A stretch of 19,994 nucleotides of DNA from a virus (Duplodnaviria > Heunggongvirae > Uroviricota > Caudoviricetes): IMG/VR virus record IMGVR_UViG_2695420538_000013; one strand, written 5' to 3'. The translations under genes were made by a program, and so were the position numbers. The notes under the pieces are model-generated. The model did not search any database. It was given only the letters and a program-made list of their open reading frames with translations, and had not been told where the DNA came from. Every line of letters starts with the position of its first letter. Positions within the stretch are counted from its first letter, which is position 1. Below are positions 10,435-19,369 of this stretch, in pieces.

Positions 10435-10767
10435 ATGAACCCTTATATTTATCTTGGTGGTGCAATACTTGCAGAGGTCATTGGTACAACCTTAATGAAG
10501 TTTTCAGAAGGTTTTACACGGTTATGGCCATCTGTTGGTACAATTATTTGTTATTGTGCATCATTCTGGTTATTAGCTCAGACGCTGGCTTATATTCCTA
10601 CAGGGATTGCTTATGCTATCTGGTCAGGAGTCGGTATTGTCCTGATTAGCTTACTGTCATGGGGACTTTTCGACCAACGGCTGGACCTGCCAGCTATTAT
10701 AGGCATGATGTTGATTTGTGCCGGTGTGTTGGTTATTAATTTATTGTCACGAAGCACACCACATTAA
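10435..10767 (+). CDS. emrE: Small multidrug resistance (SMR) efflux transporter EmrE
   Basis: 110 aa from MNPYIYLGGAILAEVIGTTLMKFSEGFTRLWPSVG..., four TM helices with the conserved Glu14. The track ORF begins at an upstream TTG. Confidence 0.95.
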   Translation: MNPYIYLGGAILAEVIGTTLMKFSEGFTRLWPSVGTIICYCASFWLLAQTLAYIPTGIAYAIWSGVGIVLISLLSWGLFDQRLDLPAIIGMMLICAGVLVINLLSRSTPH

Positions 10768-10796
10768 AATAATTTGTTTCTAAACGACTAAAATAT

Positions 10797-10830
10797 GGAG
10801 GCTCTTATATTTATATGAGCCTCGTTTTAT
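10797..10830 (+). terminator. Rho-independent terminator downstream of emrE
   Basis: GGAGGCTC (10797-10804), 12-nt loop, GAGCCTC (10817-10823), then GTTTTATGCTTTTT. Confidence 0.6.
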
Positions 10831-11021
10831 GCTTTTTGTTAATGTCTTTATTTTTTATGTATTCTTTTGTGCTTTCAAGATTATGGCGTAAGAAAATTGC
10901 AATACGATTATTGTTGTATATTCAAGATAATGTGACCTTAATTGTCTTTTTAAATAAAAATTAAACAAAAATTATATCCCACCACTAAGGTTTATAAAAG
11001 CATACGTTAGCAGGTGTCACC

Positions 11022-12548
11022 ATGAAAAAAGCCATAGCATATATGCGATTTTCATCACCAGGTCAGATGTCTGGTGACTCATTAAACCGACAGAGAAGAC
11101 TTATTGCTGAATGGTTAAAGGTAAATAGTGATTATTATCTTGATACCATAACATATGAAGATTTAGGATTAAGTGCATTCAAAGGAAAGCATGCACAATC
11201 AGGAGCTTTTTCGGAATTTTTAGATGCTATAGAGCATGGTTATATATTGCCAGGAACTACATTGTTAGTTGAAAGTCTGGACAGACTTTCAAGAGAAAAA
11301 GTCGGTGAAGCGATTGAACGTCTGAAATTGATTTTGAATCACGGTATTGATGTTATAACTCTTTGCGACAATACAGTCTATAATATTGACTCTTTGAATG
11401 AGCCATATTCATTAATAAAAGCCATACTTATAGCACAAAGGGCAAATGAAGAAAGCGAGATAAAGTCAAGTCGGGTTAAATTATCATGGAAGAAAAAACG
11501 GCAGGATGCACTGGAATCAGGTACGATTATGACGGCGTCTTGTCCGAGATGGCTCTCCTTAGATGACAAAAGAACGGCTTTTGTTCCAGACCCCGACAGG
11601 GTGAAAACTATTGAGCTAATTTTTAAACTCAGGATGGAAAGGCGCTCATTGAATGCAATAGCCAAGTATTTAAATGATCATGCTGTAAAGAATTTCTCAG
11701 GAAAAGAAAGTGCATGGGGACCTTCTGTAATTGAAAAATTATTAGCGAATAAAGCTCTGATAGGTATATGCGTACCTTCATATCGTGCAAGAGGGAAAGG
11801 GATAAGTGAAATCGCTGGCTATTATCCCAGAGTCATATCAGATGATTTGTTTTACGCTGTACAGGAAATTCGGTTGGCACCTTTTGGTATTAGCAATAGT
11901 AGCAAGAATCCTATGCTAATAAATCTACTTCGAACAGTTATGAAGTGTGAGGCTTGTGGTAATACCATGATTGTTCATGCGGTATCTGGAAGTTTGCATG
12001 GCTATTATGTTTGTCCGATGAGAAGATTACATCGATGTGACAGGCCATCAATAAAAAGAGATTTGGTTGATTATAATATCATTAATGAATTGCTTTTTAA
12101 TTGTAGCAAAATTCAACCAGTTGAAAACAAGAAAGATGCTAATGAAACTTTAGAGTTAAAAATTATTGAGCTTCAGATGAAAATTAATAATTTAATCGTT
12201 GCATTGTCTGTCGCGCCTGAAGTTACCGCTATAGCAGAGAAAATAAGACTATTAGATAAGGAATTACGAAGGGCTTCGGTATCATTGAAAACTTTGAAGA
12301 GTAAAGGTGTAAATTCATTCAGTGATTTTTATACTATTGACTTAACCAGTAAAAATGGACGAGAGTTATGCCGTACACTTGCCTATAAAACATTCGAAAA
12401 AATCATAATTAATACGGATAATAAAACCTGTGATATTTATTTTATGAATGGCATTGTTTTTAAACACTATCCTTTAATGAAAGTAATATCCGCCCAGCAG
12501 GCGATAAGTGCTCTCAAATATATGGTTGATGGTGAGATTTATTTCTAA
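11022..12548 (+). CDS. ybcK: Large serine recombinase (resolvase/invertase N-terminal catalytic domain, recombinase domain, zinc-ribbon), YbcK-like
   Basis: 508 aa. N-terminal AIAYMRFSSPGQ...SLNRQR (catalytic Ser region), central recombinase domain, Cys cluster CEACGN...YYVCP...HRCD, and C-terminal coiled-coil-like region. Confidence 0.9.
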   Translation: MKKAIAYMRFSSPGQMSGDSLNRQRRLIAEWLKVNSDYYLDTITYEDLGLSAFKGKHAQSGAFSEFLDAIEHGYILPGTTLLVESLDRLSREKVGEAIERLKLILNHGIDVITLCDNTVYNIDSLNEPYSLIKAILIAQRANEESEIKSSRVKLSWKKKRQDALESGTIMTASCPRWLSLDDKRTAFVPDPDRVKTIELIFKLRMERRSLNAIAKYLNDHAVKNFSGKESAWGPSVIEKLLANKALIGICVPSYRARGKGISEIAGYYPRVISDDLFYAVQEIRLAPFGISNSSKNPMLINLLRTVMKCEACGNTMIVHAVSGSLHGYYVCPMRRLHRCDRPSIKRDLVDYNIINELLFNCSKIQPVENKKDANETLELKIIELQMKINNLIVALSVAPEVTAIAEKIRLLDKELRRASVSLKTLKSKGVNSFSDFYTIDLTSKNGRELCRTLAYKTFEKIIINTDNKTCDIYFMNGIVFKHYPLMKVISAQQAISALKYMVDGEIYF

Positions 12549-13012
12549 ATAATGATCTCGGATTTTAAGTTATGCTATGGTGATAAAGTGCAAGACAGAA
12601 TTAATTATCTTTGACGAAACTTAATGGGTAATTACTTTGTTTGCTCCCACAAGCGAGTTTTGTACGGCTGTATTGGGGTAGTAAATGAGCTATACAATCT
12701 TAATCATTTGTCAGGTGAGAACTCTTGGTCGCAGATTCAAATACTGAAAATACGTGACAAATTATTATGAGCAAAATGGTGTATGTCACGTATTTTGAAT
12801 GATAGGTTAAAAAATAACACCGACTTTCGTAGGTATTACTAATAATAAAGCAGAGTTTTTAGATAGTATCAATGTGCTTTGTGTATATTGTGGCAAATAA
12901 TTGGGTTGGGGGTACAATTGTGATTGCTTTTGCATAAAAATTGCGCCTTTATGCATAATGAGATAAAGGAATATCAAATAAAATAACGATAGGTCATAAC
13001 AAAGAGGTTTTT

Positions 13013-13564
13013 ATGAAAACACTTATCGTTTCAACTGTATTGGCATTCATAACATTTTCTGCGCAGGCTGCAGCATTTCAGGTCACTAGTAATGAAATAA
13101 AAACAGGAGAGCAACTTACAACGTCTCATGTCTTTTCTGGATTTGGGTGTGAAGGTGGTAATACATCGCCCTCATTAACCTGGTCTGGTGTTCCTGAAGG
13201 TACCAAAAGCTTTGCCGTAACTGTATATGATCCAGATGCACCTACAGGCAGTGGTTGGTGGCATTGGACTGTTGTTAATATTCCAGCAACAATAACATAT
13301 TTGCCCGTTGATGCAGGGAGACGTGATGGAACAAAACTGCCGACTGGTGCTGTTCAAGGCCGAAATGATTTTGGCTATGCTGGGTTTGGTGGCGCGTGTC
13401 CTCCTAAAGGAGATAAACCACATCATTACCAGTTTAAAGTATGGGCTCTAAAAACTGAAAAGATTCCTGTAGATTCTAACTCCAGCGGAGCGTTAGTTGG
13501 TTATATGCTTAATGCTAATAAAATCGCAACCGCTGAGATAACACCAGTTTATGAGATAAAGTAG
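13013..13564 (+). CDS. ybcL: Secreted PEBP/YbhB-YbcL family (UPF0098) protein
   Basis: 183 aa with signal peptide MKTLIVSTVLAFITFSAQAAA. PEBP motifs DPDAPTGSGWWHW and HHYQFKVWAL. AGAGG Shine-Dalgarno. Confidence 0.85.
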   Translation: MKTLIVSTVLAFITFSAQAAAFQVTSNEIKTGEQLTTSHVFSGFGCEGGNTSPSLTWSGVPEGTKSFAVTVYDPDAPTGSGWWHWTVVNIPATITYLPVDAGRRDGTKLPTGAVQGRNDFGYAGFGGACPPKGDKPHHYQFKVWALKTEKIPVDSNSSGALVGYMLNANKIATAEITPVYEIK

Positions 13565-13573
13565 GGTGAGAGT

Positions 13574-14371
13574 ATGCTGGCAAGAGGTAAGACTAACTTA
13601 AAGATCGAAGAAATACGGATGCATAAACATCATGAGATTCATAGGGTTAAGCCTCTTATGCCAGCTTTGTGTCGTATCCGTCAGGGAAAGAAAGTTATCA
13701 ATTGGGAGACGCATACTTTAACTGTTGATAATAATCAAATAATATTATTTCCTTGTGGTTATGAATTTTATATTGAGAATTATCCTGAAGCAGGGCTTTA
13801 TCTTGCAGAAATGCTTTACTTACCCATTGATTTAATTGAGAGTTTCCAAAAACTTTATACGGTAACTGATCAAATACGTAACAAAACAAGTTTCTTTTTA
13901 CCTCAGAATCCTGAGTTAATATATTGTTGGGAGCAACTAAAAACATCTGTTTCCCGAGGCTTCTCAACTAAAATTCAGGAGCACTTAGCAATGGGCGTTC
14001 TACTTTCGTTAGGAGTGAATCATGTTAATCATTTACTTTTATCATATAGTAAACAATCATTGATAAGTCGTTGTTATAACCTGCTGCTATCCGAACCCGG
14101 CACAAAATGGACAGCAAACAAGGTTGCTCGATATCTCTACATTTCTGTTTCTACATTACATCGCCGTCTAGCAAGCGAGGGGGTAAGTTTCCAAAGTATA
14201 CTGGACGATGTGAGGTTAAATAATGCGTTGTCTGCTATACAAACGACGGTAAAACCTATAAGCGAGATTGCCAGAGAAAATGGTTATAAGTGTCCTTCTC
14301 GTTTTACTGAAAGATTTCATAATCGTTTTAATATAACACCAAGAGAGATAAGAAAAGCTTCCAGAGAGTAA
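13574..14371 (+). CDS. ybcM: AraC/XylS-family transcriptional regulator YbcM-like
   Basis: 265 aa. C-terminal double HTH ([21 protein letters not shown]...[30 protein letters not shown]). Confidence 0.85.
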
Positions 14372-14487
14372 AAGTGTTTTAAGAAGGAGCAATTCTATCG
14401 ATTTTGATTTTGGGAAATCAACACGGCATAATTATGTCACCGGAGCCTGAACAACTCCGGTGACTTCTGCGCTAAACGGGGACGTTT

Positions 14488-14589
14488 ATGCGCACATACA
14501 ATCCAAACTCTCTTCTCCCTTCACAGATGCAGAAATGCACCTGCAATTCTTTGCATCTAGCGTTTGACCTCTGCGGAGGTGAAGCGTGA
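14488..14589 (+). CDS. ylcH: Small protein YlcH-like (33 aa)
   Basis: Hand-translated [36 protein letters not shown], too short for the ORF track. Its stop overlaps the GTG start of ybcN, and it matches my recollection of DLP12 ylcH. Confidence 0.45.
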
Positions 14590-15041
14590 ACCTCTCACAA
14601 GACGGCATCAAATTACATCGCGGCAACTTCACCGCTATCGGTCGGCAGATCCAGCCTTATCTGGAGGAGGGCAAATGCTTTCGCATGGTGCTTAAACCGT
14701 GGCGTGAGAAACGCAGTCTTTCCCAGAATGCACTCAGCCACATGTGGTACAGCGAAATCAGTGAATACCTCATCAGCAGGGGTAAAACGTTCGCCACTCC
14801 AGCTTGGGTAAAAGATGCTCTCAAACACACATATCTCGGTTATGAAACCAAAGACCTGGTTGATGTCGTAACCGGTGATATCACCACTATCCAGTCGTTA
14901 CGCCATACCTCCGATCTTGATACCGGAGAGATGTATGTCTTCCTGTGTAAGGTTGAAGCCTGGGCGGTGAATATTGGCTGCCACCTGACTATTCCGCAGA
15001 GCTGCGAGTTCCAGCTGCTCCGCGACAAGCAGGAGGCGTAA
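14586..15041 (+). CDS. ybcN: YbcN-family protein (DLP12-type nin-region protein, reported DNA base-flipping activity)
   Basis: 151 aa with GTG start and GGAGGTG Shine-Dalgarno. Sequence [30 protein letters not shown]... as recalled for YbcN. Confidence 0.8.
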
Positions 15042-15211
15042 TGGCTACACCGCTTATTCGTGTCATGAACGGACACATCTACAGAGTATCAAATCGTCGT
15101 AAGCGTAAGCCTGAGCTGAAGCCATCCGAAATACCAACACTGCTCGGATATACCGCTAGCCTGGTTGATAAAAAATGGTTGCGACTGGCAGCAAGGAGGA
15201 ATCATGGCTGA
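15041..15211 (+). CDS. ninE: NinE-like protein (56 aa)
   Basis: Hand-translated [56 protein letters not shown]. Start overlaps the ybcN stop (TAATG) and its end overlaps the ybcO start. Basic small protein in the nin position. Confidence 0.6.
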   Translation: MATPLIRVMNGHIYRVSNRRKRKPELKPSEIPTLLGYTASLVDKKWLRLAARRNHG

Positions 15212-15494
15212 TTTGAGAAAAGCAGCGCGTGGTCGGGAATGCCAGGTAAGAATCCCTGGCGTATGTAATGGCAATTCTGAAACGTCTGTACTGGCACATA
15301 TCCGGCTGGCTGGATTGTGCGGTACCGGTATCAAACCGCCAGACCTGATTGCCACCATTGCATGTTCTGCCTGCCACGACGAAATCGACCGCCGCACACA
15401 TTTTGTCGATGCTGCATATGCAAAAGAATGCGCGCTGGAAGGTATGGCGAGAACACAGGTTATCTGGCTGAAAGAGGGGGTTATTAAGGCGTGA
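15204..15494 (+). CDS. ybcO: YbcO-family (DUF1364) Cys-rich putative nuclease
   Basis: 96 aa from [34 protein letters not shown]...[11 protein letters not shown]. The track ORF starts earlier at 15165. Confidence 0.8.
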
Positions 15495-15854
15495 ATACCT
15501 ACAGTATCACATTACCCTGGCCTCCGAGCAATAATCGCTATTACCGCCATAATCGCGGGCGCACGCACGTCAGTGCAGAGGGGGCAGGCATACCGCGATA
15601 ACGTCGCCCGAATCATTAAAAACGCAATGCTGGATATCGGCCTGGCTATGCCTGTGAAAATCCGCATTGAGTGCCACATGCCGGATCGCCGTAGCCGTGA
15701 CCTGGATAATCTGCAAAAAGCCGCTTTTGACGCACTCACTAAAGCAGGTTTCTGGCTGGATGATGCTCAGGTCGTTGATTACCGCGTTGTGAAGATGCCT
15801 GTTACCAAAGGTGGGAGGCTGGAACTGACCATCACCGAAATGGGGAATGAATGA
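15491..15854 (+). pseudogene. rusA: Holliday-junction resolvase RusA, disrupted by a +1 frameshift in a G5 run (15580-15584)
   Basis: The GTG-start frame gives (M)[30 protein letters not shown] and then stops. The remaining RusA sequence [36 protein letters not shown]...TITEMGNE continues in the next frame (track ORF 15573..15854). Confidence 0.75.
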
Positions 15855-15991
15855 TGTTTGAGTTTAATATGGCAGAACTTCTTCGCCACCGCTGGGGGCG
15901 TCTGCGCTTATATCGTTTCCCCGGCTCTGTTTTGACCGATTACCGAATACTGAAGAATTACGCCAAAACACTGACAGGAGCAGGAGTATGA
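15851..15991 (+). CDS. ylcG: Small protein YlcG-like (46 aa)
   Basis: Hand-translated [46 protein letters not shown]. Start overlaps the rusA stop. Confidence 0.55.
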
Positions 15992-16076
15992 AGTCAGAGA
16001 TAACAATCAACTAATACTGTTTTGTTGATTTTTGCTTGTAATTGGCGTTCTGGTCTGAGTTTTGTGGAGTAAGTTG

Positions 16077-16454
16077 ATGCGTGATATTCAGATGGTTCTT
16101 GAGCGTTGGGGAGCGTGGGCGGCTAATAATCATGAAGATGTGACCTGGTCGTCCATTGCCGCCGGTTTTAAGGGATTAATTCCTTCAAAAGTAAAATCTC
16201 GCCCGCAATGTTGTGACGATGACGCGATGATCATTTGCGGGTGCATGGCCCGTCTGAAAAAGAACAACAGCGATTTGCATGATTTATTGGTGGACTATTA
16301 TGTCGGCGGCATGACTTTTATGGCGCTTGCACGTAAGCATGGGCGATCTGATTGTTGGGTTGGCAGGATGCTCCAGAAAGCTGAGTGCGTAGTGGAGGGT
16401 ATGCTGATGGTGTTGGATCTCCGATTGGAGATGGATGCTGATTGTTCGAAATAA
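16077..16454 (+). CDS. quuD: Late-gene antiterminator Q (QuuD-like)
   Basis: [22 protein letters not shown]... with Cys-rich zinc-binding region ([16 protein letters not shown]). Positioned just upstream of the late promoter/terminator and lysis genes. The start may instead be the TTG one codon earlier (16074) or the TTG at 16062. Confidence 0.85.
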
Positions 16455-16466
16455 TTAAAGGAAAAG

Positions 16467-16495
16467 TTGCTGTCTGATTCTCATTAGTCTAACAT
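16467..16495 (+). promoter_or_regulatory. Candidate late promoter pR' (Q-utilisation region)
   Basis: TTGCTG (16467-16472), 17-bp spacer, TAACAT (16490-16495), located between Q and the terminator, followed by the near-palindrome AACATTTTAAATGTT. Confidence 0.25.
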
Positions 16496-16552
16496 TTTAA
16501 ATGTTGGAATCGCAACGTAGTTATTATCATATAACAGCTTGTTTCCTGATTT

Positions 16553-16582
16553 AGCCAGCCTCCCCAAAGGCTGGTTTTTTTC
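16553..16582 (+). terminator. Rho-independent terminator (tR'-like) downstream of Q and its promoter region
   Basis: AGCCAGCC, loop TCCCCAAA, GGCTGG, followed by a T7 run (16575-16581). Confidence 0.7.
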
Positions 16583-16609
16583 TAATAAGTATTATTTCGG
16601 GTAGGGATT

Positions 16610-17134
16610 TTATTGTTTAACCCATAATAATTCATTGACATTGAATCCCAACTTTTGAGCGGTTCGCACATAGTCTGCTTTTACTTTATCTGGAATAGTT
16701 GGGGTCCTTGCCAGAATCCATAGGTATTCTCTGTTCGGACCACTGACAAGAGCATACTTATACTCATCATCCAGTTTGATTACATTATAGCCACCATAGA
16801 AGGGGCCAAAAAACGAAACCTTCAACGCTGCAGTTTTAGTATCTCCAGTAAAGTATGCTTTACCTTCGCTCTCGCTCCATTTATTTTTCGTTGGATCGTA
16901 TCCACGGTTAAGTACACGAATCCCTCCGTCGTTCCGTTTTCCATAGGTAGCGCTGACCTGTTCCAGACCACGTTCGAACCGGTTCTCGAGGCGAGCTATT
17001 TCATACCATTTTCCGAGGTAGCGGTTGGCGTCAAAATTTGTAATCGGCTGCACACCTTTAGGTGGTGTCGGGGCCTTACATGCTATAAGAGTGAAAGAGA
17101 GTGCAATGCCAGTCAACACAGGCCATAACTTCAT
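16610..17134 (-). CDS. Bacterial lipocalin (Blc-like) outer-membrane lipoprotein
   Basis: 174 aa with lipoprotein signal and lipobox LIAC (MKLWPVLTGIALSFTLIACKAP). Lipocalin motifs NFDANRYLGKWYEIARLENRFERG and KVSFFGPFYGGYNVIKLD. Diverged from, not identical to, my recollection of chromosomal Blc. Confidence 0.85.
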   Translation of the reverse strand: MKLWPVLTGIALSFTLIACKAPTPPKGVQPITNFDANRYLGKWYEIARLENRFERGLEQVSATYGKRNDGGIRVLNRGYDPTKNKWSESEGKAYFTGDTKTAALKVSFFGPFYGGYNVIKLDDEYKYALVSGPNREYLWILARTPTIPDKVKADYVRTAQKLGFNVNELLWVKQ

Positions 17135-17326
17135 AATAAATCCTGTACTTTTGATAGTTGAGAGTAAGTATGAAAGATAGATGATTACGACCGATCACTT
17201 AAAGAACTTTCATACTATATTAGGAATAGTCTATAACAGAAAAATTGTCAGTGATGACGCCAGAAAGGCAATTTATTCCGTGCACTACACAGTTTATGTG
17301 TTAATGAATTAGTCAAGGGGGAGAAT

Positions 17327-18286
17327 ATGATAAAAAAACCTGTGATTGGAATCAGCGGTTGTTTGGCCGGCTCTGCTGTTCGTTTTGATGGTGGTCACAA
17401 AAGAGCTGACTTTTTAATGGACAAATTAGTGGAATGGGTAACATTCAGACCAGTATGTCCGGAAATGGCTATAGGGCTGCCAGTTCCGCGTCCTGCTCTA
17501 CGTCTTGTGCGCTCGACGCAAGGAAATATACGGATGTGTTTCAGCCACGACCAGAATGAGGATGTGACAGAGAGAATGACAGAGTTTAGTCGTTCTTATA
17601 TGGACAAATTAAAGGATGTATCGGGGTTTGTGGTTTGTGCTAAATCTCCCAGCTGTGGCATGGAGCGCGTGCGTGTCTATGATGAAAATGGTAATCGAGG
17701 TCGTAAAGATGGAGTGGGACTATTTACGAGCACTTTGATGGAAAAGTTTTCCTGGCTACCGGTTGAAGAGGATGGGCGATTACATGATCCAGTGCTTCGT
17801 GAGAATTTTGTTGAAAGAGTTTTTGCTTTGCATGAGCTCAATCACCTTTACAAGGAGAAATTATCAAGAAGAGAGTTATTAGCTTTTCATAGTCGTTATA
17901 AGCTTCAGTTGTTGGCGCATAGTCAGGCAGGCTATAAAGATATGGGACCATTTGTGGCTGCAATACACGAGTGGGCGGACCTTGAATCATACTTTGAGGT
18001 GTATCGTGATAAGCTGATGGCGATTCTCAGAAAACCTGCATCACGTAAAAATCACACGAATGTGCTGATGCATATACAGGGGTATTTTAGTAACTACTTA
18101 AGTACACGCCAGCGTAAAGAGTTGAGCGAGGTTATACTTAACTATCGTTCTGGCACATTACCTCTTCTTGCGCCGTTGACTCTGCTGAAGCATTATCTGG
18201 GTGAGTATCCTAATGATTACTTGCTTACACAGAATTACTTCGATCCCTATCCGGACGAACTGGCTCTAAGACTGATGGTAAATTAA
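17327..18286 (+). CDS. DUF523 (TudS-type Fe-S desulfidase) fused to DUF1722 (YbgA-like) protein; candidate RudS-like thionucleoside/tRNA desulfidase
   Basis: 319 aa with AAGGGGGAG Shine-Dalgarno. N-terminal half has conserved Cys residues (GISGCLAGS, VCPEMAIGLP, VVCAKSPSCGMERV) as in DUF523; C-terminal half resembles YbgA/DUF1722. Domain assignment from memory, not a search. Confidence 0.75.
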   Translation: MIKKPVIGISGCLAGSAVRFDGGHKRADFLMDKLVEWVTFRPVCPEMAIGLPVPRPALRLVRSTQGNIRMCFSHDQNEDVTERMTEFSRSYMDKLKDVSGFVVCAKSPSCGMERVRVYDENGNRGRKDGVGLFTSTLMEKFSWLPVEEDGRLHDPVLRENFVERVFALHELNHLYKEKLSRRELLAFHSRYKLQLLAHSQAGYKDMGPFVAAIHEWADLESYFEVYRDKLMAILRKPASRKNHTNVLMHIQGYFSNYLSTRQRKELSEVILNYRSGTLPLLAPLTLLKHYLGEYPNDYLLTQNYFDPYPDELALRLMVN

Positions 18287-18637
18287 TTGTATGCGATATC
18301 ATCCAAAAGGATGAGTTCCTGCATGCAGGATATTTACAATCGTAAAAACTACACTATGATACCCAGAGTGTCAGTTTGTATAAAAACTCTGTTTACGCTG
18401 AAGAAACCATTGAGATGCAACTTAAAGTTGGTAAACATGCCAGTCAAAATATATAATATTATGATTCCACGCAGCTATATATAATATAACAGATTGGTTT
18501 AATAATTTGTCTTTGTGAGTTAAATACATAATTTTATACTTGTGATGCAATGAGATTTTCCTTATTGTTGAACTGGCGAATATTGATTTTCCACCTATAC
18601 TTACCTGGTGTAACCCCAATGATATCAGGTGGATAAT

Positions 18638-19369
18638 ATGCCATACATATGTTCTATCATTTTGGTGTTGAACTCGTTTGATGTCCGAATTGGTAAAGAA
18701 GATATTTTGTTTAAAAAAGGAAGTGCTGTTCTCATTGATTACAATTTAAAAGATTTTTTTTCATCAAATATAGATCATGTAATGATCGTAGATGTTGAAG
18801 AGAAAACAGTTAATGATTTCTTTAAAAGCAACACACTCTCACCTTTTTCTGTAAGAAGGTTTTATCCGGCATACTTGATGGTGGAATGTGAAGATTTTTC
18901 ATTGTTAAAGAACTTGATTGCATGCTTGAATTGTGATGGCAGAACTGTGGATTTTGTTAGAAATCAAATATCACTTGCATGTCTTGCTATCTTATCTTCA
19001 GAGAAAATAGTGCAAAGTTTTTTATTTGGATGTCTTAATAGTTTAGGAAGTAAAGTTAAGGCTATTATTCACACGGATATATCTGCAGCATGGAGACTTT
19101 GTGATATATCTTCAAGACTGTATCTGAGTGAAAGTCTGTTAAAAAGAAAATTAAAGCACGAAGGCTTATCATTTAGTAAGTTAATTCTTGAAGAGCGAAT
19201 GGTGATGGCGGAAAGGTTATTAAGCTACAATTTATATTCTGTTGGAAAAGTTGCTGAGATATGCGGTTATGAAAACACGTCATATTTTGTGAGTGTTTTC
19301 AGAAGATATTTTGGTGTTCCTCCCCATCAATATTCATCAAGACTTTTTTTAGAAAAAGACATGATGTAA
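18638..19369 (+). CDS. AraC-family transcriptional regulator, AppY/EnvY-like, in AT-rich DNA
   Basis: From MPYICSIILVLNSFDV... (AGGTGG Shine-Dalgarno 5 nt upstream; the track ORF begins at GTG 18629). C-terminal AraC double HTH (WRLCDISSRLYLSESLLKRKLKHEGLSFSKL...VAEICGYENTSYFVSVFRRYFGVPP). N-terminus resembles what I recall of AppY. Confidence 0.8.
   Translation: MPYICSIILVLNSFDVRIGKEDILFKKGSAVLIDYNLKDFFSSNIDHVMIVDVEEKTVNDFFKSNTLSPFSVRRFYPAYLMVECEDFSLLKNLIACLNCDGRTVDFVRNQISLACLAILSSEKIVQSFLFGCLNSLGSKVKAIIHTDISAAWRLCDISSRLYLSESLLKRKLKHEGLSFSKLILEERMVMAERLLSYNLYSVGKVAEICGYENTSYFVSVFRRYFGVPPHQYSSRLFLEKDMM

Follow-up and report, generated by a model that had tools for sequence, protein, structure and literature searches.

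Phage lambda carrying nin5 deletions is viable, and in the host cell junctions are resolved by the RuvABC system. The nin region of lambdoid phages has been described as non-essential (PMC3945230) and its synteny is conserved (PMC4118853). RusA binds DNA through an arginine-rich loop formed by residues 65–69, with R69 of special importance, while catalysis needs D70, D72, K76 and D90/D91 (PMC1636454). The rusA gene of Escherichia coli K-12 is "normally quiescent" and becomes active only when an IS2 or IS10 insertion upstream supplies a promoter (PMC1636454; PMC4118853). Phage lambda Rap (NinG), the analogous junction resolvase, is encoded in the nin region between orf/ninB and Q and has a dispensable accessory role in phage recombination, two properties that it shares with the gene described here (PMC4118853). 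In contrast to RusA, lambda Rap belongs to a structurally unrelated protein family, and no rap gene is present in the prophage studied here.

The DNA analysed, termed the window, is a stretch of 19,994 nucleotides from a Caudoviricetes record (IMGVR_UViG_2695420538_000013). Its rusA corresponds to K-12 RusA (ybcP) of the cryptic prophage DLP12 (PDB 1Q8R, 2H8C and 2H8E; PF05866), with which it shares the gene, the neighbours ybcN-ninE-ybcO-rusA-ylcG-Q and the sequence. Unlike K-12 RusA, the frame is broken here after codon 31 and residue 68 is Ser rather than Arg. Similarly, unlike DLP12, which occupies the tRNA-Arg site, the prophage lies by espL1 and keeps the exo-bet-gam, immunity and O-P genes. 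The in-frame parent WP_001099715.1 has a haplotype identical to that of the window, including Ser68 and a synonymous T at 15740, but its allele carries GGGG and encodes an intact 120-residue RusA. The same allele as in the window is found base for base in the RefSeq rusA pseudogenes D0R13_RS11090 (strain 2452), AC6IZJ_RS06825 (strain 23CRST050) and L6L56_RS16990 (strain KKa019), with no difference in rusA itself; the prophages around it differ in their deletions, IS insertions and backbone.

Organization of the rusA locus

The gene is one of the nin genes of a lambdoid prophage and stands between the orf/ninB homologue and Q. Its neighbours, taken from the list of open reading frames and from strain 2452, where the identical region is annotated (offset 601), are the following:

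14586–15041, plus strand: ybcN (ninB/orf homologue)
15041–15211, plus strand: ninE
15204–15494, plus strand: ybcO
15851–15991, plus strand: ylcG
16077–16454, plus strand: antiterminator Q

The start codon of rusA overlaps the stop codon of ybcO (GTGA) and its stop codon overlaps the ATG of ylcG (ATGA), an arrangement that corresponds, as judged from the sequence, to the usual tightly packed operon layout. The gene itself is divided as follows:

15491–15854, plus strand: rusA, frameshifted (ORF list, Pfam)
15491–15583, plus strand: rusA 5' segment, GTG start and codons 1–31 in frame 0, comprising beta-strand 1 and the flexible loop 15–28 (identical to 1Q8R residues 1–31; fold from PMC1636454)
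15580–15584, plus strand: G5 homopolymer with a one-base insertion, the intact form being G4 (alignment to 4G relatives)
15584–15601, plus strand: out-of-frame tail GCA GGC ATA CCG CGA TAA, encoding AGIPR and a premature stop (ORF list)
15585–15854, plus strand: rusA 3' segment, codons 32–120 and the stop in the +1 frame, comprising helix alpha1, the Arg-rich DNA-binding loop 65–69 and the catalytic residues (Pfam, 1Q8R alignment, translation minus one G)
15693–15695, plus strand: AGC codon for Ser68 (Arg in K-12 RusA), a linked haplotype marker (alignments; shared with WP_001099715.1)

Where an intact gene would have about 120 uninterrupted codons, the native frame is lost after codon 31 and a stop is reached at 15599–15601. 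The frame 0 ORF (15491–15601) begins with the GTG, ends with this TAA and encodes 36 residues, namely RusA residues 1–31 followed by AGIPR. The remainder is read in the +1 frame, where an ORF of 93 residues extends from 15573 to 15854 and terminates at the TGA in 15852–15854. The two frames meet at the G5 run in 15580–15584 (plus strand 15570–15589, tcagtgcaga gggggcaggc), where intact rusA alleles display GGGG, one G fewer at the same spot of the alignment; the difference (15580G>-) is seen in all four 4G relatives compared. The G5 run by itself is unremarkable, because the window holds 12 G/C runs of five or more bases, and it is the comparison with intact alleles that matters. The initial annotation had placed a frameshift caused by one extra G at this very run, and the sequence, the ORFs, the Pfam matches and the intact alleles all bear this out; the alignment with the latter, which had been suggested as a check, reveals exactly one extra G there. 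It had also described the two parts of RusA as lying in different frames, which holds, and had counted 29 N-terminal codons, which does not: 31 codons are kept, through Gly31, and 29 is the number of complete codons ahead of the start of the G-run.

The 93-residue piece matches the Pfam RusA profile PF05866 (cut-off used, 22.8 bits) over profile positions 25–124, with an E-value of 4.2e-17 and 63.3 bits. When one G is removed, the whole profile is matched (positions 1–123; E-value 2.7e-22; 80.1 bits) and the resulting protein is identical at 119 of 120 residues to the crystallised E. coli K-12 RusA (PDB 1Q8R), the sole difference being Arg68 to Ser. In the 1Q8R alignment D70, D72, K76, D90, D91 and R69 are all retained in the 3' segment, in the +1 frame, and this part of rusA carries no further disabling mutations. 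The integrity of the 3' part is silent on selection either way, since all 5G copies are essentially identical. With its frame broken, the gene reads as a pseudogene of the RusA family PF05866 and would not count as a functional member.

Prophage context and decay

In public genomes the same prophage is integrated beside espL1/yniD and comprises int, exo-bet-gam, a cI-like repressor gene, O, P, ren, cargo, the nin genes, Q, further cargo, the lysis genes and the structural genes. The chromosomal neighbour espL1 is also frameshifted in strain 2452. Two blocks of cargo are recognized in the window. The first, between ren and ninB at about 10500–14500, holds emrE, ylcJ, ybcK (serine recombinase), ybcL and ybcM. 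The second spans 16610–19369, between Q and the lysis genes, and holds a lipocalin gene (16610–17134, minus strand), a YbgA-family gene (17327–18286) and a gene for an HTH protein; stx or nmpC sit in this slot in other lambdoid prophages. The HTH-domain gene displays a second homopolymer polymorphism of this prophage family. The window has T8 at 18747–18754 and an intact ORF of 246 residues (18629–19369); the gene has T7 and is annotated as "frameshifted" in strain WP3-W18-ESBL-08 (20324–21054) and in the second prophage of KKa019 (20239–20963).

An insertion sequence interrupts the integrase gene of the window:

876–2185, minus strand: IS3-family element (IS629/IS1203-like) of 1310 bp that splits the tyrosine integrase, with target duplication ATA (sequence, Rfam ALIL)
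1805–2131: orfA of the element
918–1808: orfB of the element
1734–1850: ALIL -1 frameshift pseudoknot of the element
1–875 and 2186–2522: integrase fragments

The prophage of the window is itself decaying, because this element splits its integrase. Most related genomes are without this element at 876–2185; in several, another IS lies at some other place in the prophage. Relatives with five Gs in rusA show further, independent damage: in 23CRST050 an IS3-family element lies in ylcG (locus 20626–21839) and the portal gene is interrupted by an internal stop (locus 30367–31968), and 2452 has lost the exo-to-ren recombination-immunity-replication block together with most late genes (deletions at locus 10750–10968 and 20189–22487). 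These lesions, with the split integrase of the window, support the earlier suggestion that a nin-region gene is in decay. The Rfam scan of the whole window returned the ALIL pseudoknot of the IS as its sole match, with none near rusA. A scan for promoter and terminator consensus sequences over 14400–16700 gave counts that lay no further than about 1.3 standard deviations from the shuffle mean; it has no bearing on rusA.

The 5G allele in public genomes

At least 40 complete E. coli genomes match the window at 100% identity over 551 bp around rusA, G5 included; their sources are humans, dogs, chickens, river water and wastewater, and they come from several continents. The exact 56-mer centred on the run with five Gs (5G) occurs in 58 of 2,281 matching records; the others align over 55 bases and have four (4G), so that about 97% of the matching E. 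coli records display the in-frame form. The 5G allele was sought in 47 isolated phage records that match the region and was found in none, all being 4G, as their full-length matches span 550 record bases for the 551-base query. In all three carriers inspected (2452, 23CRST050 and KKa019) NCBI PGAP labels the gene "crossover junction endodeoxyribonuclease RusA, frameshifted"; the rusA pseudogene is already annotated and thus known. Across NCBI, ENA and Logan assemblies the exact 93-residue fragment is present on at least 1,000 contigs, against 550 contigs with the in-frame parent protein in the same collection.

The five Gs are always found on one linked haplotype, defined by T15574 and Ser68. 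The commonest flank, of the K-12 type (about 1,700 records, as estimated from identity bands), differs from the window solely in having C at position 15574; when five Gs are put into this flank, the artificial sequence matches no record exactly. Artificial 56-mers with six or three Gs are similarly without an exact match in 5,426 genomes (more than 2,200 matching records), which leaves two tract states, 4G and 5G. The 5G form is a heritable allele, since an artefact would strike every haplotype, yet 5G is absent on the K-12-type flank.

The same flank with four Gs occurs in about 219 records (277 minus 58 in the 95–99% identity band). Five genomes, AR_0013, CE10, NZ_OZ546943.1, 23CRST032 and KH_005, are 100% identical to a 189-nucleotide query that combines 4G with Ser68 and the linked synonymous T at 15740, and their RusA is WP_001099715.1. 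Over 1.5 kb (14883–16385) CE10 and the window are identical except for the extra G. The CE10 copy occupies the classical DLP12 position next to tRNA-Arg and belongs to a different host, as would be expected of an ancestor but not of a revertant. The pattern points to R68S having arisen first, in a working gene, and to a single later addition of one G. This single origin, as opposed to a mutational hotspot, is suggested because neither 6G nor 3G nor a 5G on the K-12-type flank occurs.

Spread between hosts and prophages

The chromosomal flanks of 2452 and 23CRST050 are 97.2% identical, with 142 mismatches in 5.3 kb (2.8% difference), and their prophages each differ from the window by three SNPs, over 9.4 kb and 13.7 kb, respectively. 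KKa019 harbours two related prophages, one of them at the espL1 site, and the second carries the 5G allele:

NZ_CP091664.1 3448400–3482950: second prophage of KKa019, with rusA at 17092–17455 of the locus

This prophage is identical to the window only over 15277–15969, about 0.7 kb; outside this tract it follows the SNP pattern of WP3-W18-ESBL-08. Its integrase and immunity region both differ, and its cargo includes a 3.9-kb inverse-autotransporter gene. Mosaics between lambdoid prophages have a median size of 400–500 bp and such exchange is commonplace (PMC3945230), a size that the tract of about 0.7 kb fits. The patch is what homologous exchange of short patches between lambdoid prophages would leave behind; a second, independent addition of G on the rare Ser68 haplotype in KKa019 is possible but less parsimonious. 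The 5G allele has evidently spread horizontally, because hosts with divergent flanks, and a second prophage through the patch of about 0.7 kb, share it. The structural genes of the second KKa019 prophage all look intact and the element is apparently complete, so 5G is not limited to dead prophages, and the word decay describes the gene and not every element that carries it.

Two further comparisons concern the surroundings of the gene. The flanks of 23CRST050 (5G) and WP3-W18-ESBL-08 (intact rusA) differ at two positions in 3 kb, and their prophages display a dense SNP cluster over 15374–15970. Between the window and the WP3-W18-ESBL-08 prophage, at the same site in near-identical hosts, there is about one SNP in the first 13 kb, about 35 SNPs are clustered across ybcO-rusA-ylcG, and sparser differences continue up to 18780. 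This cluster suggests that the segment from nin through Q to the cargo genes was replaced by recombination in one of the two lineages.

Taken together, the 5G form of rusA is very probably a fixed loss-of-function pseudogene allele, created by a slippage insertion in a dispensable nin-region resolvase gene of a decaying lambdoid prophage. The extra G was added to GGGG on the T15574/Ser68 haplotype, presumably by replication slippage. Ribosomes that start at the GTG in 15491 would then produce the 36-residue peptide described above and no resolvase. The allele then spread by descent, with the prophage as it moved from one E. coli lineage to another, and through short-patch recombination into a second lambdoid prophage, carried passively, and probably neutrally, by a mobile, recombining and partly decaying prophage module. 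Its loss would be tolerated in view of the quiescence of K-12 rusA, the non-essential nin region and junction resolution by the host RuvABC.

The numbers of public contigs, at least 1,000 with the frameshifted allele against 550 with its parent, and the presence of 5G in divergent hosts and on two prophage backbones would also fit an adaptive loss, in which inactivation of rusA is positively selected in the lysogen or the phage, for example by avoiding harmful junction cleavage when the operon is transcribed. This explanation is unlikely, as the frequency is explicable by clonal expansion of the carriers and sampling bias toward clinical isolates, a single inactivating event was found with no recurrence on other haplotypes, and none of the 47 isolated phages has 5G. 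Clonal expansion, sampling or hitch-hiking on successful clones may account for the apparent excess of 5G over its in-frame parent in public assemblies, with a small chance that loss or attenuation of rusA brings a selective advantage.

Consequences for the protein and possible rescue

The 36-residue peptide contains one of the four beta-strands and neither of the helices, and it has neither the arginine loop that binds DNA nor any catalytic residue. Since this product keeps only strand 1 and the loop, it is a safe inference that resolvase activity is lost with the 5G allele.

Residual synthesis of RusA could in principle modify this outcome. The allele might act as a strong translational attenuator, in which low-level +1 slippage of tRNA-Gly on GGG-G yields native RusA(S68), a nuclease that would be harmful at high dose, and in which attenuation or loss is selected; such selection would explain why 5G outnumbers the in-frame parent in public assemblies, although this proposal is very unlikely. 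Marginally less probable still is a programmed or leaky +1 ribosomal frameshift as such, whereby tRNA-Gly moves from GGG in 15581–15583 to GGG in 15582–15584 and a low level of native RusA(S68) is made. Re-pairing on GGG-G would be perfect and would give the native protein, and the +1 frame is open from 15573, so that any shift before the stop at 15599 would lead to a near-native product. Nothing, however, would pause the ribosome at GGG-G, because the next frame 0 codon, GCA, is neither a stop nor a rare codon. A prfB-type +1 site has a Shine-Dalgarno-like element 3 nucleotides upstream of the slippery codon, which is followed by a stop. The geometry at the rusA G-run does not fit such a site: GCA follows in place of a stop, no stimulator stands at the required distance, and folding of 15560–15680 reveals no significant structure after the G-run (z = -1.7; 13 of 200 shuffles fold at least as well). 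In addition, the frameshifted arrangement is not conserved among homologues, with 4G in about 97% of records and in 47 of 47 phages, the opposite of what a programmed site would display.

A functional, N-terminally truncated RusA made by internal initiation or re-initiation, either of 93 residues from GTG 15573 or of 75 residues from ATG 15627, is highly improbable. Gene callers do report both ORFs, the catalytic residues all lie in the 3' part, and ATG 15627 is in frame 26 nucleotides past the premature stop. Against this, no Shine-Dalgarno-like sequence precedes GTG 15573, ATG 15627 or ATG 15648, and the 93-residue piece covers only Pfam positions 25–124. Truncated forms would be without beta-strand 1 of the four-stranded sheet at the dimer interface, the loop 15–28 and the DNA contact S13, and the 75-residue form would also be without most of helix alpha1 (PMC1636454). 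In a public protein collection clustered at 90% identity, the 75-residue fragment is grouped with entries called "protein ren", which suggests a clustering or annotation mix-up and not biology.

Tract length and assembly accuracy

The initial annotation had also raised the possibility of a slippage-prone, phase-variable tract, in which frequent switching of the length of the G-run turns rusA on and off. The frameshift does lie in a homopolymer, and 4G and 5G both occur on the Ser68 haplotype, where the five in-frame genomes could be revertants. Known contingency homopolymers are usually at least 7 bases long, and the tract, of five bases, is shorter. Several length states among close relatives, typical of a contingency locus, are not seen: no 3G or 6G form exists in more than 2,200 records, 5G does not occur on the commonest haplotype, and it is uniform in the at least 40 genomes identical over 551 bp, stable and without flicker among close relatives. 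The CE10 copy, furthermore, sits at another site in another host. The suggestion of phase variation is therefore not supported, its chance being as slim as that of a functional truncated protein.

Least credible, to the point of being virtually negligible, is an error of sequencing or assembly in a genome that really has GGGG: homopolymer indels are a common error class on some platforms and the window is known as an assembled sequence, but the identical 5G stands in 58 complete-genome records that differ widely in laboratory, year, host and country, with the 93-residue ORF on at least 1,000 contigs, and co-segregates perfectly with T15574 and Ser68, never appearing on the K-12-type flank (about 1,700 records, inferred). 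These records refute the earlier proposal of a sequencing error in the homopolymer, and the resequencing that was to reveal four Gs is in effect answered by independent assemblies: the five Gs are real.

Biological significance

The gene is to be labelled a rusA pseudogene, and the ORFs of 36, 75 and 93 residues reported by gene callers are not to count as proteins. Beyond correct annotation the significance is small. Of mild interest are the horizontal spread of a dead rusA allele and its apparent excess over the in-frame parent among public assemblies. In strains whose only copy is 5G, the classical rus-1/rus-2 activation of rusA by IS elements would not suppress ruv mutations unless the frameshift reverts. 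Finally, the 5G allele offers a convenient neutral marker with which to follow one lambdoid nin-region module from one E. coli lineage to another and, through recombination, into other prophages.
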